A program made the position numbers and the translations under genes. The notes beneath the pieces are model-generated. The model was given only the letters and a program-made list of their open reading frames with translations. It ran no database searches and was not told where the DNA came from. A stretch of 28,002 bases of DNA from Archangium sp. (GTDB lineage: Bacteria; Myxococcota; Myxococcia; Myxococcales; Myxococcaceae). The stretch spans positions 1 to 28,002 of the forward strand of contig JANLPS010000236.1 in assembly GCA_031367385.1 (NCBI GenBank), given 5' to 3'. Of the stretch, positions 20,728 to 28,002 are shown in pieces. Position 1 is the stretch's first letter, and each line of letters begins with the position of its first letter.

Positions 20728-22077
20728 TCAGTCGTTGCCCTTGATGCAGGCGACAGGTGTCAGGCGTTTGTGCACGCGCGCGAGCCCGGCCAGCTCGACT
20801 GATTCGAGAACGTCGTCGAGGTTTTTGTAGCAGGGGCCTGACTCATCGAGCGGGGTGTTGCGGGTGTTGAGCAGCACGCCGAGCCTGGCCATGCGGAGGT
20901 CGGTGTCTTTCTGATTGAGGGCGCGCTTCGCCTGGGTGCGTGAGAGCTGCCGGCCCGCGCCGTGATTGACGGAGTAGAGCGACTCGCTCGCGCCTTGATC
21001 TGCGAAGAGAATGGCCGAGCCCGTCTCCATCGACCCGGGGATCAGAATGGGGTGGCCGGTGTGCTCCCAGGAGGTGCCCTTGAGCGCCGGGTGATCAGAA
21101 GGAAACGCCCTGGTCGCGCCTTTGCGGGCGATGAACTTGCCGTTTTCGCGCTGAATCAGGTTGTGGCTGATCTCGTAGTACACATGCGCCTCGCCGCCGA
21201 AGACCAGCTCGAGGGCCTCGCCCACCGCGTCGGCGATCAGCAGTCGATTGGCGATGGCGAAGTTGGCCGCCATGTTGTGCAGGTTCCAATAGTCGTGACC
21301 GATGGTCGAATCGGCGTCGAACCAGACGTGGTCTTCGCGGTTGCGGGCCAGCGCGAGCAGCTCGGCGCCCTGCACGAAGAATTGCTTCGCGATGTTCCAC
21401 CCGAAGCCACGGCTGCCGGTGTGCAGCATCACCCAGACCTTGTCGTCCTGGTCGACCTGCATCTCGCAGAAGTGGTTGCCTCCGCCGAGCGAGCCGAGCT
21501 GCGAGCGTTTGCTCCATGCGCGCTCGGGCACGTCGACGCAATCGTCATCGACCGGCAGGCTGGCGCGCTCAGCGACGTCGTTCGAGCGACCCAGCGCCTT
21601 GGCTCCGTGCCGCAGCACCTCGGGTACCAACTTGGCGCTGATCTTCTTCGAAGCCGACCCGCCGCCGATGCCGACGCCAATGCCGATGCGATTGATCACC
21701 TCATTGATCCACCGGCGGCGTTTCTCGGGGTCGGCCACGTCTTCACGGGTCAGCGTGGTGGCGAGCTGCACCATGCCGCAGCCGATGTCGTAACCGGCCG
21801 CGGTCGGCAGCAGCGTGCCCTCGGTTTCGATCGCGGTGCCAATCGGCACGCCGTAGCCAACGTGGCAATCAGGGGTGAGCACGACCCTGGTCGCGCCGGG
21901 AAAGGTGGTGGCGTTGACCACCTGGTCGAAGACGGCTTCTTCGACGCCAGAGCCGCCATCGGCCCCGAAGAGCAGCCGGTCGCTCAGAAACAGGTGGGCC
22001 TCGCAGCGCATGGCCTTGCGCTTGGGCAGCACCCAGTGACCCTCTGCCGCCTTTTCCAACGTTTGTTTCCAGCTCAT
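20728..22077 (-). CDS. rtcB: RNA 3'-phosphate/5'-OH ligase RtcB
   Basis: PDCHVGYGVPIG, GYDIGCG, GSLGGGNHF, HTGSRG, SHN, RKGA, PGSM, SVNHGAGR; ATG at 22077. Confidence 0.95.
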   Translation of the reverse strand: MSWKQTLEKAAEGHWVLPKRKAMRCEAHLFLSDRLLFGADGGSGVEEAVFDQVVNATTFPGATRVVLTPDCHVGYGVPIGTAIETEGTLLPTAAGYDIGCGMVQLATTLTREDVADPEKRRRWINEVINRIGIGVGIGGGSASKKISAKLVPEVLRHGAKALGRSNDVAERASLPVDDDCVDVPERAWSKRSQLGSLGGGNHFCEMQVDQDDKVWVMLHTGSRGFGWNIAKQFFVQGAELLALARNREDHVWFDADSTIGHDYWNLHNMAANFAIANRLLIADAVGEALELVFGGEAHVYYEISHNLIQRENGKFIARKGATRAFPSDHPALKGTSWEHTGHPILIPGSMETGSAILFADQGASESLYSVNHGAGRQLSRTQAKRALNQKDTDLRMARLGVLLNTRNTPLDESGPCYKNLDDVLESVELAGLARVHKRLTPVACIKGND

Positions 22078-22155
22078 GGCGCGCTCCGGGCCCTCTTGAC
22101 GAGCAAAAACGCCTGCTCTGACGGAGTGTATCGATGCGGCGCACACCGAAGGCGT

Positions 22156-22186
22156 TTGACAAGTCGAGGCCGCATGCGCTTTGAAT
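22156..22186 (+). promoter_or_regulatory. putative sigma70-type promoter of the trp operon
   Basis: Perfect TTGACA 22156-22161 and TTGAAT 22181-22186 (19-nt spacer, longer than optimal), 8 nt before ATG 22195, which has no SD; suggests a leaderless mRNA. Confidence 0.5.
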
Positions 22187-22194
22187 GCGCGACC

Positions 22195-22263
22195 ATGACA
22201 ACGCACTCCACCTCATCGACCTCGGCTGCACATCGGGCGGTGGTGGGTCTTTGGCAAAGCTGA
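22195..22263 (+). CDS. trp leader ORF (22 aa, MTTHSTSSTSAAHRAVVGLWQS); probable 0-frame part of a frameshifted trpE
   Basis: ATG 22195 to TGA 22261-22263; single Trp codon in the context GGT CTT TGG C. Confidence 0.6.
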   Translation: MTTHSTSSTSAAHRAVVGLWQS

Positions 22264-22291
22264 TCAGCTGAACCACGCGTACCCAATTCGG

Positions 22292-23668
22292 TTGGTGTTG
22301 CCGGCTGACACCGAGACGCCGGTCTCGGCGTTCTTGAAGCTCTCGGCGGGCTCGAAGCAGGCGTTTCTGCTCGAGTCGGTCGAGCATGGCGAACGGGTCG
22401 GCCGGTGGTCGTTCATTGGCGTTCACCCCCGCGCGGTGCACCGCTTCACCGTTGGTGCTTCTCCTTCGCCGTTCGACTTTCTGCAGTCGATGGTCGCCGA
22501 GCACCGGGGCACGCGCCCGCCCGGGTTTCCACCCCTCTGCGGGGGCGCTGTCGGTTTTCTCACCTACGACTGCGTGCAACGGCTCGAGCCTCGGGTGCAG
22601 CTGGCGAAGAAAGACGAGCTCGGGTTTCCCGAAGCGGTGTTCTTCGACGTCGATACGCTGGTCGCGTTCGACAACGCGCGGCGCGAAATGCAGCTGATCG
22701 CCCAAGTGCGGCCGAGCGATGGCCTGCCGCTGCCCCGGCTGATTCGCGAGGCCGAGGGGCGTCTCAGGGGGCTCCAACGCCTGCTGCTCCAGCCGTTCAA
22801 GCCGTTGATTTCGCGAACCTATTCGCTGCCAGTGCTCAAGCCACGGTCGACCAAGCCGGCGTTTCTGAAGGCGGTCGCCCAGGCGAAAGAATACGTTGCG
22901 GCAGGTGACTGCCAGCAGGTCGTGGTCTCGCAGCGGTTCGACGCAGAGACGGCGATACCGTCGGTGGCGTTGTACCGAGCGCTGCGTCGGGTCAACCCCT
23001 CGCCGTTCATGTTTTACCTGCGCGATGGCCAGCGAGAGCTGATCGGCGGGTCTCCCGAGCGGCTGGTGAAGGTCGAGGGTGACGTGGTGTCGGTGCGACC
23101 GATTGCCGGTACCCGTCGGCGGGGTGCGACGCCAGAAGACGATGCCCGGCTCGAGGCCGAGCTGATCAATGACGAGAAAGAAAACGCCGAGCACGTGATG
23201 CTGGTCGACCTGGGGCGCAACGACGTGGGCCGGGTCGCGCGCATCGGGTCGGTCAAGGTCGACGCGCTTCGAATCGTCGAGCGCTATTCACACGTGTTGC
23301 ACATGGTCTCGCAAGTGAGCGGGCGCCTGGCCGACGGCAAGACCAGCATCGACGCGTTGCGAGCCGCCTTCCCCGCGGGGACGCTGTCAGGGGCGCCAAA
23401 GGTGCGGGCGATGCAGATTATCGATGCGCTCGAGCCCTGCCGCCGTGGGCCTTACGGAGGCGCGGTCGGGTACGTCGATTCGAGCGGTGACCTGGACCTC
23501 GCGATCACCATTCGAACCTTCATGCGAAATGGTCGCCGACTGTCGGTTCAAGCCGGAGCAGGTATCGTTCACGACTCCGTGCCCGAGGCCGAGTTTCAAG
23601 AGACGTTGACCAAGGCGCGTGCTCTCTTCAACGCCGTGCATCTGGCGGCGAAGGGGGTGCTGCCATGA
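22292..23668 (+). CDS. trpE: anthranilate synthase component I (true N-terminus probably upstream; frame open from 22199)
   Basis: [75 protein letters not shown]. The first in-frame near-canonical start, TTG 22292, has no SD. Confidence 0.95.
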
Positions 23669-24237
23669 TCGTGATCATCGACAACTACGACTCGTTCACC
23701 TTCAACCTGGTGCAGGAGATTGGGGTGCTGGGAGCGAGCTTTCGAGTGTTTCGAAACGACGCTGTGACGGTCGACGAGGTGTTGGCGATGAAGCCCGATG
23801 GCCTCTTGATCAGCCCGGGCCCGTGCTCGCCCAACGAGGCCGGCATCTCGGTCGAGCTGATCAAACGCGCGGCCGGCAAGGTGCCGGTGCTCGGCGTGTG
23901 CCTGGGGCACCAGGCCATCGGCGCGGCCTTCGGAGGCCGGGTGATTCGCAACGCTCGCATCGTTCACGGCAAGGCCTCGCCGGTACGGCATCGGGGCGCT
24001 GGCGTCTTTCGCGATCTCCCTTCACCGTTTCGCGCGGGCCGGTACCACTCGCTGGTCGTTGAAAAGGCGACCTTGCCCAAGGCGCTGCGAGTCACCGCGT
24101 GGACGGATGAGGGCGAGATTATGGGGCTGCGGCACTCGAAGTTCGACGTCGAGGGCGTGCAGTTTCACCCGGAGTCGATTCTCACTGAGCACGGGCGCAC
24201 CTTGCTGGGCAACTGGCTCGAGCGGAGCGTGCGATGA
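23665..24237 (+). CDS. trpG: anthranilate synthase component II (glutamine amidotransferase)
   Basis: [42 protein letters not shown] overlap with trpE. Confidence 0.95.
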
Positions 24238-24623
24238 TCGCGTCGGTGCGTAAGGCGCTGCGAGTCGTCAATTCATGCCGAGCGCGAGCCCGTGCTACTG
24301 CGTCAGCGGCGCGAGCCGAGCAAGCAATCACGAACACGCTCTTCGCGATGGAGCATGTGCGCGCGTCGATCAACAGAGGCGAGCGGAGTGCGACGTTGAA
24401 GACCGCGCGCACGGCGCTGCGAGTCGTCAACTCCTGCCGAGCGCGAGCTGCTGCGTCAGTGGCTCGAGCCGAGCACACAATGACGACCACGCTCGAAGCG
24501 ACGCAGCATGGGCGCGCGTTGACCGACGGCGGCCAGCGAAGCGCTCTGATCATGAATGCGACGGTGCAGACGCTGCGTGGGCGCGCGTCGCCGACCAACC
24601 GCGGGCAGAGGCGCTCACGATGA
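24234..24623 (+). CDS. repeat-derived Arg/Ala-rich ORF (129 aa) inside the trp operon
   Basis: ATGA overlaps with both the trpG stop and the trpD start; internal duplication [16 protein letters not shown]; no recognisable family. Confidence 0.45.
24254..24560 (+). repeat. diverged tandem duplication, period about 159 bp
   Basis: GGCGCTGCGAGTCGTCAA(T/C)TC(A/C)TGCCGAGCGCGAGC at 24254 and 24413; similarity continues through GCGTCAG..GAGCCGAGCA..CACGCTC..AGCATG.GCGCGCGT. Confidence 0.85.
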
Positions 24624-26371
24624 TCAGCGCGATGCTCACGCGGGCGATTGCGGGGCACCGTCTGTCGCGAGACGAAATGGCCGAAGCGGTGACGCAGATG
24701 CTCGAGGGCCGCGCGACCGCCGTGCAAGTCGGGGCCCTGCTGGCAGTGCTCGCCTCGCGCGGTGAGACCGTCGATGAGCTGATCGGAGCGGTCACTGCAG
24801 TGCGTGCTCAAGCCCAGATGATCTCGGTGAAGCGGCCCATCTTCGTCGACACCTGCGGCACGGGCGGCGATGGCGCGGGCACCTTCAACATCTCGACCGC
24901 CTCCGCCATCGTCACCGCCGCCTGCGGAGTGACGGTCGCGAAGCACGGCAATCGCTCGGTCTCGTCGAGGTGCGGCTCGGCCGACGTGTTGGCAGCGCTC
25001 GGAGCGAACATCGAGCTCTCCGCGCCGCAGGTCGAAGCGTGTATTGCCGCGACACGACTGGGGTTCTTGTTCGCTCCAGCGCACCACCCGGCGTTTCGTC
25101 ACGTGGCCGCTGTGCGTCGGGAGCTCGGCGTGCGAACGCTCTTCAACCTGGTCGGGCCCCTCTCGAACCCAGCGGGAGCCAAGCGCCAGGTCATCGGCGT
25201 GTTCGACCCCAAGTGGGTGCCCCTGGTCGCGCAAGCCCTCGCCGCGCTGGGCGTCGAGCATGCCCTGGTCGTTCACGGCGCAGGCCTCGACGAGCTCTCA
25301 ATCAGCGGCGAGACGCTGGTTGAAGAGGTGCGGGGCACCGAGCGAACGGCGTATCGAGTCACGCCCGAGACAGTCGGCCTCGCACGGTCGCCGGTAGAGG
25401 CCCTCAAGGGCGGCTCAGCCGAAGAGAACGCAGCGATCATTCGGTCGGTGTTGTCGGGGGAGCTCGGAGCACGGCGCGACGTCGTGGTGTTCAATTCGGC
25501 CGCGGCGCTCCTGGTGGCCGGAAGAGTCGCGACGCTGAAGGAAGGGGTGACCCTCGCGGGCGAGGCCATTGATCTCGGCGCGGCGGAGCGGGTGCTCGAC
25601 CAATTCGTGCGCTTCACGAACAATGCGTTCACCACGCTCGACACGATCGTCTGCTCAGCCGAGCCCGAGGCGCTGATCAGCGAGACGCGGCGCTCGACCC
25701 GTTCGTTGTACGGCGCGTTGAGCCCAATCGGCGCGTCGCTCAAGGTGATCGCCGAGGTCAAACGCGCTTCTCCTTCAGCCGGAGCGATCGCCGACATCGC
25801 TGACCCTGTTTCATTGGCAGCCCGATACTCAGCCGCGGGTGCCGCGGGTGTCTCGGTGCTGACCGAGAAGAATCATTTCAAAGGCTCCCTGGCCGATCTG
25901 CTCGCCGTGTCGGCCGCGCCCCAAATGGCTCCGACGCTGCGAAAAGACTTCGTCACCCACCCTGCCCAGATCATCAATGCCCGTCGCAGCGGAGCCAGCG
26001 CAGTGCTGCTGATCGCCGCTGTGCTCGGCTCGAAGCTCAAGCACTTCATCTCGCTGTGCGAGAGCCACGAGATCGAGGCGCTGGTCGAAGTGCACGACGC
26101 CGAAGAGCTTGATCAGGCCCTCGCGGGCGGTGCGCACATCATCGGCATCAACCACCGAGATCTCCGGTCGTTCGAGATTGATCTGGGCTTATCAGCGCGG
26201 CTGATCCCCCGCATTCCCTCGTCGGTTCGGGTGGTGTGCGAGAGCGGCGTGAAGTCGCTCGACGATGCGAAGAAGCTTCGCGAGGGCGGTGCCTCGAACC
26301 TGCTGATTGGCGAATTTCTGGTGCGCAGCCCAGAGCCGGGCGCACTCATTCGCGCGCTGGGTGCTCTGTGA
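24620..26371 (+). CDS. trpD: fused anthranilate phosphoribosyltransferase / indole-3-glycerol-phosphate synthase (TrpD-TrpC, 583 aa)
   Basis: TrpD motifs DTCGTGGDG, FNIST, KHGNRSVSS, RTLFNLVGPL, GLDE, continuing without a stop into TrpC motifs IAEVKRASPS, VSVLTE, LRKDF, LVEVH, IGINHRDL, ESG. Confidence 0.93.
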   Translation: MISAMLTRAIAGHRLSRDEMAEAVTQMLEGRATAVQVGALLAVLASRGETVDELIGAVTAVRAQAQMISVKRPIFVDTCGTGGDGAGTFNISTASAIVTAACGVTVAKHGNRSVSSRCGSADVLAALGANIELSAPQVEACIAATRLGFLFAPAHHPAFRHVAAVRRELGVRTLFNLVGPLSNPAGAKRQVIGVFDPKWVPLVAQALAALGVEHALVVHGAGLDELSISGETLVEEVRGTERTAYRVTPETVGLARSPVEALKGGSAEENAAIIRSVLSGELGARRDVVVFNSAAALLVAGRVATLKEGVTLAGEAIDLGAAERVLDQFVRFTNNAFTTLDTIVCSAEPEALISETRRSTRSLYGALSPIGASLKVIAEVKRASPSAGAIADIADPVSLAARYSAAGAAGVSVLTEKNHFKGSLADLLAVSAAPQMAPTLRKDFVTHPAQIINARRSGASAVLLIAAVLGSKLKHFISLCESHEIEALVEVHDAEELDQALAGGAHIIGINHRDLRSFEIDLGLSARLIPRIPSSVRVVCESGVKSLDDAKKLREGGASNLLIGEFLVRSPEPGALIRALGAL

Positions 26372-26967
26372 TTCGCGTGAAGATCTGCGGTATCACTCGG
26401 CAAATCGATGCGACGCGGGCCTGCGATCTGGGTGCCGATGCCATCGGGCTCAACTTTTGGCCCAAGTCGAAGCGCTGCGTGACCGTGAGTGGCGCACGTA
26501 AAATCGTTCGAGCCGCCTCCCCGCTGGTCTGGGTGGTTGGGCTCTTCGTCAATGCGTCTCGCGACGAGATCAACGAGACGATCTCGAGGGTCGGCCTCAA
26601 CGCGATTCAGCTGCACGGTGACGAATCGGTGCGCGACACCACGGGGTACCCGGTGCCTGTCTTCAAAGCGGTGCACGTGAAAGACAAAGTGCCGACGATT
26701 CGGTTCAAGACGCCGCTCGTGCTCGACGCACAGCAACCCGGCTTCGGTGGCGGTGGTGTGGCATTCGACTGGTCTCTGGCTCGACAAATCGCCCGCGAGC
26801 ACGAGGTGCTGTTGGCCGGAGGCTTGACGAGCGACAACGTGGCGGCGGCCATCAACGCGGTGCGCCCGCTCGGCGTCGACGTGGCCAGCGGAGTGGAATC
26901 ATCTCCGGGAATCAAAGATCTGAAGCTGATGCGGCGATTCATCGAGGCCGCGAGGAGCACGACATGA
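26368..26967 (+). CDS. trpF: phosphoribosylanthranilate isomerase
   Basis: GTG at 26368 (GTGA overlap); [39 protein letters not shown]. Confidence 0.95.
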
Positions 26968-28002
26968 CAACCGGTCGCTTCGGCGCCTACGGCGGGCGGT
27001 ACGTGCCCGAGACCCTGGTTCCCGCGCTCGATGAGCTCGAAGCCGCGTGGAATGCCCGTGGAGCCGCATTTCAGGCCGAGCTCGACGAGCTGCTCGCGCG
27101 GTTCGCGGGTCGCCCGACGCCCATCACCCGAGCGAGAAATCTGCCGGGCACTGAGCGGGTACAGATTCTGCTCAAACGTGAAGACCTGCTTCACACCGGC
27201 GCGCACAAACTCAACAATGCGTTGGGTCAGGTGCTGCTCGCGAAGCGCATGGGCAAGCAGCGAATCATCGCCGAAACCGGAGCAGGCCAACACGGCGTCG
27301 CGACGGCCACGGCCTGTGCGTTGCTCGGCCTGCCCTGCGAGATCTTCATGGGCGCGGTCGACGTCGAGCGGCAGCAGCCGAACGTGCTCCGCATGCGCCT
27401 GCTGGGGGCGAAGGTGATACCGGTTGAGAACGGCGCGAAGACGCTCAAAGACGCGCTCAACGAGGCGCTCCGCGACTGGGTGACGAATGTTCGAAACACC
27501 CATTACGTGTTGGGGAGCGCCGCCGGGCCGCACCCTTTTCCCACCATCGTTCGCACGTTGCAGTCGGTCATCGGCACCGAGGCGCGTGCGCAGTGTCTCG
27601 CGCTGACCGGCCGGCTGCCTGACGCGGCCATCGCCTGCGTCGGAGGAGGCTCGAACGCCATCGGCCTCTTCTCGGCCTTCATCGAAGATCCCTCGAAGCT
27701 GGTCGCGGTCGAGGCTGCGGGGCATGGGCTTGAATCAGGTCAGCACGGCGCGTCGTTGCTCAAGGGCGTGCCCGGGGTGCTCCACGGCGCGCGGAGCTAC
27801 GTGCTGCAGAATGAAGATGGGCAGATCACCGACGCGCATTCGATCAGCGCTGGGCTCGATTACCCGGGCGTGGGCCCCGAGCTGTCGGCGCTCAAAGACA
27901 GCGGGAGACTCACGCTGATGTCAGCGACCGATGATCAGGCGTTGGCGGCGCTGCTTCAGCTCGCTCGGCGCGAGGGCGTCATTTGCGCGCTCGAATCGGC
28001 GC
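26964..28002 (+). CDS. trpB: tryptophan synthase beta chain (runs off the right edge)
   Basis: ATG at 26964 (ATGA overlap); manual translation [65 protein letters not shown]. Confidence 0.96.

Follow-up and report, generated by a model that had tools for sequence, protein, structure and literature searches.

How can a trpE gene be translated when it has no normal start and its frame lies exactly +1 to that of a short leader ORF containing a single Trp codon? This question was raised by the 28,002-nucleotide stretch of Archangium sp. DNA considered here (the window). In an initial annotation of the window, it had been proposed that ribosomes reach trpE by slipping at a CUU-UGG site resembling that of prfB. 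We examined the arrangement of the locus, its conservation in relatives, and the other ways in which TrpE could be produced.

Arrangement of the leader ORF and trpE

The leader ORF, MTTHSTSSTSAAHRAVVGLWQS followed by a stop codon, occupies positions 22195 to 22263 of the forward strand (frame 0). Its 3' part reads GTG GTG GGT CTT TGG CAA AGC TGA, and the Trp codon is located two codons 5' of the TGA stop (22261-22263). The trpE frame is +1 to that of the leader and is open from 22199 to 23668. A TGA at 22196-22198, within the ATGA of the leader start, closes the trpE frame, and hence a start located further upstream in this frame would be unable to reach trpE. The SD-like sequence GGTGGTG is present at 22239-22245, with the invariant core of this element (GGTG, 22242-22245) ending 3 nt 5' of the CTT. 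In the predicted slip site (22249-22252), the P-site CTT (22249-22251) would be exchanged for TTT (22250-22252) in the +1 frame. The TGG at 22252-22254, which is the A-site codon and the predicted sensor, is followed by an invariant C (22255), making GGC the first A-site codon of the +1 frame. The positions given in the initial annotation for the leader ATG, GGTGGTG, CTT, TTT, TGG, and stop were each correct on re-reading.

Profile searches and structure alignment identified the product of the +1 frame (22250-23668, forward strand) as TrpE, component I of anthranilate synthase, encoded without a normal start. The match to TIGR00564 had an E value of 2e-150 and a score of 501.7 bits, which is slightly below the cut-off of 517.7, while the matches to PF04715 and PF00425 were above their cut-offs. 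The predicted slip product has 490 residues (19 plus 471), the length that had been proposed. The first ATG, GTG, or TTG in the trpE frame is the TTG at 22292-22294; this codon lacks an SD (anti-SD duplex, +0.5 kcal/mol), as the annotation had stated, and initiation there would remove some of the conserved strand that precedes ADTETP. The residues preceding this TTG had been described as TrpE-like. Consistent with that description, the residues PIRLVLPAD begin 5' of the TTG and aligned with the N-terminal stretch of the solved TrpE chains 7bvd_A and 5cwa_A, and alignment of the +1-frame product to solved TrpE began at residue 11-12.

One explanation for such an arrangement is an assembly error, a pseudogene, or a frame restored by transcriptional slippage. 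The genome containing the window (G000) is 98% complete and is distributed over 562 contigs, and a fragmented assembly of this type leaves some room for error. The initial annotation had called for a check for an indel; no inserted or missing base was detected across the site in contigs, rather than raw reads, from four runs of two studies, two of which may themselves be the source of the DNA of the window. Against an artifact, the same layout was present in 98 other genomes and in the named isolate genomes of Anaeromyxobacter oryzae Red232 (L189), A. terrae SG22 (L215), A. soli SG29 (L225), and A. sp. PSR-1 (L250), the operon was intact, and the T run at the slip site was only 3 nt long in the window. 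Assembly error or a pseudogene is thus already contradicted, and this explanation as a whole, slippage included, is scarcely credible.

The start of trpG (23665-24237) overlaps the trpE stop (ATGA). A trpD-trpC fusion in one ORF (24620-26371), trpF (about 26368-26967), and trpB (from 26964, with the window ending at 28002) are also on the forward strand. Between trpG and trpD is a 129-codon ORF (24234-24623) that overlaps its neighbors by ATGA at both ends, has no Pfam match, and consists of two diverged copies that are 76 to 78% identical over 144 to 173 nt. No other match to this ORF was detected in the genome, and it was absent from all seven relatives checked, including G001. A gene for an RtcB-family RNA ligase (20728-22078, matches below the NCBIfam cut-offs) is located on the reverse strand and is divergent from trpE; the promoters of the two genes would share about 115 nt.

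Conservation of the cassette in relatives

Of the 363 genomes searched in the order, 246 had a match, and 107 matches above 490 bits formed a distinct group. The 107 loci analysed comprised 106 of that group (G271 was left out) and G373, obtained from a phylum search; G087 was left out, as its contig begins within the gene. NTTTGG was detected 5' of the TrpE core with trpE at +1 in 99 of these 107 loci, compared with 1 and 0 loci for the other two offsets, indicating that the layout is not due to chance. The SD-like element, CTT-TGG, stop, and +1 relation, the conservation of which had been predicted, were kept in these 99 loci. The cassette was present in 85/85 loci of one family (f7) and in 14/21 loci of another (f1), and in 20 of 27 genera. 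The derivation of 85 of the 99 loci from a single family means that these counts overstate independence; the same positions were invariant when one representative for each of the 20 genera was examined. Among the closest metagenome loci, 28/31 also had the cassette; the lineages of these loci may overlap with the genome set.

Comparison of the 99 cassette loci gave the consensus GG[T/A/G]G-NNN-(C/G)TT-TGG-C with trpE at +1. A G was found at -7, -6, and -4 in every locus (GGTG, n = 97; GGAG, n = 1; GGGG, n = 1), with the invariant G at -7 being carried by nine different codons. The slip codon was CTT in 98 loci and GTT in one; CTT accounted for 0.9% of the Leu codons in the same TrpE genes and for no more than 3% in each of 16 conserved Leu columns. 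The A-site codon was TGG in all 99 loci and was always followed by C, while across 26 conserved Gly columns the frequency of the commonest codon was at most 0.90. The E-site codon was TTT in 53/99 loci, with TTT representing 3.5% of Phe codons. The distance from the slip site to the DxETP core had ten different values, ranging from 49 to 109 nt, all of which preserved the frame. Stops were present between the slip site and the core in the leader frame of 99/99 loci, in the third frame of 71/99, and in the trpE frame of none. Conservation at the level of nucleotides points to a frameshift signal, and the element is real and strongly conserved.

The eight loci without a cassette had an ATG, GTG, or TTG start 25 to 37 codons before the core, and five of these starts had an SD of -5.8 or better. 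G373, a member of the clade from outside the order, lacked the cassette. On a FastTree tree of 56 sequences, in which deep support was weak, the cassette-less loci were scattered among the holders. Two loci that were sisters on this tree differed in their arrangements: L117 (G278) had a cassette and a GTG located 1 nt after the leader stop, while L113 (G277) retained the GTG and lacked the cassette. This pair illustrates a possible route of cassette loss.

CTTTGG was found in 0/10 more distant TrpEs (two further sequences, which had no anchor motif, were dropped), and the pattern was found in 0/12 of a further distant TrpE set and in 0/26 of the assessable distant metagenome loci (of 49, 23 were dropped for want of an anchor). 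A pattern scan of GTDB, in which CTTTGGC was required, identified at least 120 stretches. Among the matches listed, those outside Myxococcales-type TrpE occurred in all three frames and, as assessed by eye, without the GGTG and leader start. Two matches in Halieaceae were rejected, as each represented the end of an upstream gene ahead of a normal ATG.

Starts of the leader ORF

An ATG in the leader frame was present within 21 codons upstream in 93/99 loci, compared with 1 and 1 for the other frames, and the remaining six loci used GTG. Leader starts were found 3 to 19 codons 5' of the CTT, always in frame 0; in f1, the leader often had 18 to 20 codons ahead of the CTT. In f7, a typical leader was MTVFLWR(R) and a stop. 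In this family, the gene directly upstream was panD, which shared the frame of trpE; in 79/85 loci (for example, L005), the panD stop and the leader start overlapped as ATGA or GTGA. Readthrough of the panD stop was rejected as an explanation for f7, as this layout is absent from the f1 loci and the CTT would be unexplained. In four loci (L085, L102, L304, and L318), the usual leader ATG had become ACG or AAG and an in-frame ATG was present a few codons upstream, indicating turnover of the start with the frame being kept; GGTG-NNN-CTTTGGC was retained in each.

The leader ATG of the window had no SD (anti-SD duplex, -0.9). A TTGACA at 22156-22161, 39 nt 5' of this ATG, is a likely -35 element, with a spacing that is conserved in f1, where 10/14 cassette loci had a TTGAC located 36 to 40 nt 5' of the leader ATG. 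No full promoter was called around this TTGACA in a consensus promoter scan. The spacing of TTGAC suggests that the trp mRNA is nearly leaderless in f1 and in the window.

Evidence for and against an independent start of trpE

The leader could instead encode a separate peptide, with trpE starting by reinitiation or coupling at a weak non-AUG codon after the leader stop and with the Trp codon acting by stalling. One such codon is present in the window, a CTG at 22268-22270 that has no SD (-1.9), and a position of about -28 is a frequent start in relatives without the cassette. In f7, the codon at -28 from the core aspartate was CTG, GTG, or TTG in 71/85 loci (n = 41, 25, and 5, respectively), which exceeds the codon use of the genes (in the same contexts, CTG was 33 to 57% and GTG was 57 to 58%). 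This codon is at the place where several cassette-less relatives start and frequently followed the leader stop by 1 nt, and reinitiation may therefore contribute to translation of trpE. The -28 codon could represent basal or alternative initiation.

Other observations were difficult to reconcile with a separate start. A trpE-frame ATG was absent after the slip site in 99/99 loci, and the f7 -28 codon had no SD, with a median duplex of -1.5 versus -7.9 for the leader start. No NTG was detected before the PD motif in 13/85 f7 loci. ATG, GTG, and TTG were absent at eight or more codons before the DxETP aspartate in 55/99 loci, including the window, and CTG was absent as well in 7/99. Only 2/99 loci had an ATG, GTG, or TTG upstream within the open trpE frame, and none of CTG, ATG, GTG, or TTG was found at a place comparable to CTG 22268 in G001, G003, G190, G197, or G272. 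A separate start would also leave the CTT, the invariant C, and the frame-preserving indels unexplained. Furthermore, stalling on UGG would presumably leave the start covered by the ribosome, thereby lowering TrpE production when Trp is low. Independent initiation as the main route to TrpE is hence improbable. ATG was lacking throughout, but the view that trpE has no start of its own requires qualification for f7, in which 71/85 loci have an SD-less CTG, GTG, or TTG at the ancestral start. A TTG start within CTTTGG, in the third frame, was also considered and rejected: the resulting ORF was shorter than 20 codons in 68/99 loci and varied in length, and the leader would be unexplained.

Comparison with the prfB frameshift site

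The prfB site consists of an SD-like element, 3 nt, CUU-U, the A-site codon, and a C, as described in the available text of PMC12421855, PMC5009743, and PMC3711429. The prfB gene of G000 (C225, about 7721, reverse strand; L372) has the canonical GGGGG-TCT-CTT-TGA-C. The trpE cassette resembles prfB in having a short frame-0 ORF, an SD-like element 3 nt before the CUU, potential re-pairing from CUU to UUU, a main ORF at +1, and a C immediately following the A-site codon (99/99 trpE loci). It differs in that the A-site contains the sense codon UGG, for which the competitor would be Trp-tRNA rather than RF2, the leader stop is located 1 to 12 codons further on, and the product is a biosynthetic enzyme. 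In addition, the element is GGTG instead of AGGGGG, and some leaders have only 3 to 4 codons ahead of the CUU. The trpE cassette is not a prfB cassette, because UGG is not a stop and TrpE is not RF2, but by analogy the two likely work in similar ways. A scan of G000 for an SD-like element, NNN, and [CG]TT-T before a long +1 ORF without a start detected the trpE site and one other, unconvincing match only.

The anti-SD sequence GATCACCTCCTT was found in 5/5 relatives searched, while neither the 16S 3' end nor a tRNA-Leu(GAG) gene was found in the assembly of the window. Within the anti-SD, the best partner of GGTG is the CACC part. In this register, the core equivalent to GGAGG is located 2 nt more 5' than it is in prfB, and the best anti-SD duplex in G000 is located further 5' again. 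The claim of an SD-like element 3 nt before the CTT was borne out with regard to the sequence, GG[T/A/G]G being invariant at -7 to -4, but the register of anti-SD pairing was unlike that of the G000 prfB, so that an SD-like role for this element is inferred.

Attenuation and other controls of trp operons

In trpL attenuation, a short leader with Trp codons before trpE senses charged tRNA-Trp through ribosome pausing. The trpE cassette is like trpL in placing a short leader with a Trp codon ahead of trpE. It is unlike trpL in that there is one Trp codon, rather than tandem codons, that no terminator was found, and that trpE appears to have no separate start. Stalling at the Trp codon could nevertheless act on an RNA structure, either a terminator or a hairpin sequestering an SD, and a W-x-W was present in 3/99 leaders. 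As proposed in the initial annotation, which had seen no attenuator with a hairpin and U-tract, there was no terminator-like site in 21900-22500, and a run of five T residues within 130 nt was found in only 2/99 loci. The 60 nt past the slip site folded less strongly than coding windows (median, -15.1 versus -23.0), there was no Rfam match, and the locus provides neither an intergenic space nor a normal start that could be exposed. These results make attenuation by RNA structure very unlikely. Searches of G000 (98% complete) for TrpR, TRAP, and the T-box (PF01371, PF02081, and RF00230) did not find these regulators, and the controls were detected. A frameshift at E. coli pheL is described as incidental in the available part of PMC5009743; unlike the pheL frameshift, the shift at the trpE cassette appears to be required.

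Proposed mechanism

The combination of a conserved slip site, an invariant Trp codon, and a trpE frame at +1 makes it probable that TrpE is produced by a prfB-like +1 frameshift at CUU-UGG and that its synthesis depends on a shortage of Trp-tRNA; the layout is visible in the sequences, and both the slip and the Trp control are inferred from it. Weighing against this proposal are the f7 -28 codon, the register of GGTG pairing, the failure to find tRNA-Leu(GAG) and the 16S 3' end in the assembly, and the scarcity of covarying alternatives at the slip codon (one GTT). Given UGG in the A-site, the proportion of ribosomes that enter trpE would, on the simplest reading, be set by the supply of Trp-tRNA. 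Ribosomes would begin at the ATG at 22195, on a nearly leaderless mRNA in the case of the window, and in f7 the leader start would be coupled to the panD stop. Once CUU is occupied by peptidyl-tRNA-Leu and the A-site contains UGG, delivery of Trp-tRNA would compete with re-pairing on UUU, as extrapolated from prfB and hungry-codon work, and the re-paired UUU state would be captured by Gly-tRNA at GGC. Ample Trp would lead to termination 1 to 12 codons later, and a Trp shortage would lead to synthesis of the leader-TrpE protein, with 490 residues here. Expression of trpG and the later genes, which are joined by stop-start overlaps, would then follow via coupling or polarity.

Hungry-codon frameshifting has reportedly been examined in E. 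coli with reporters that include derivatives of the RF2 site (Gallant; Curran and Yarus; Sipley and Goldman 1993), and UGG itself is said to have been tried at this site. The proposed trpE shift is like that of the hungry-codon reporters described in the accessible text of PMC5009743, PMC2377451, and PMC2941156, in which a limited aminoacyl-tRNA slows the A-site and raises +1 slippage, but the shifts in those reporters were engineered or accidental. A slippery P-site and slow decoding at the A-site, where the aminoacyl-tRNA is in short supply, jointly promote +1 shifting (available text of PMC2377451 and PMC2941156). Weak E-site pairs also favor +1 slips, according to the part of PMC2377451 that was accessible, and the presence of TTT in the E-site of 53/99 loci accords with this effect.

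The slip could be genuine and yet serve as a fixed throttle or respond to a cue other than Trp, such as tRNA modification, polyamines, or growth rate. Polyamines, for example, increase RF2 frameshifting (PMC5009743, accessible portion). Such a cue would not account for the A-site TGG, which is the codon for the end product of the pathway, in 99/99 loci, and the searches of G000 revealed no other Trp regulator. Moreover, starvation for an amino acid raises frameshifting at the affected codon, as stated in the available text of PMC2941156. Regulation of the slip by a cue other than Trp, or a lack of regulation, is consequently unlikely, and control by Trp-tRNA is the preferred reading.

Relation to previous work and implications

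No description of a frameshift-gated trpE was found in the literature searched, which has most subscription papers outside its scope. The accessible part of PMC5009743 does not mention trpE. Similarly, trp, tryptophan, and anthranilate are not mentioned in the available text of PMC3711429; two of its supplement files had no match, and file 1 may list relevant clusters. PMC5009743, a review from 2016, states in its available text that no hungry-codon frameshift was known to yield a protein with a starvation-specific function. The trpE cassette is probably a natural amino-acid sensor of this type, a hungry-codon frameshift in which TrpE requires a +1 slip at CUU-UGG that is switched on by a shortage of charged tRNA-Trp. 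If true, this would represent natural and functional hungry-codon frameshifting and would answer the point left open by the accessible text of that review (PMC5009743).

The existence of cultured carriers (Anaeromyxobacter oryzae, A. terrae, A. soli, and sp. PSR-1) makes direct testing feasible, and the cassette, at about 25 nt, is compact enough to fit a reporter. If the proposed mechanism is correct, automated calls of the TrpE start would be wrong in these bacteria. Furthermore, the cassette, which has been kept across two families of the Myxococcales, would provide a new form of feedback by an amino acid on a textbook operon, apart from the repressor, the attenuator, TRAP, and the T-box.
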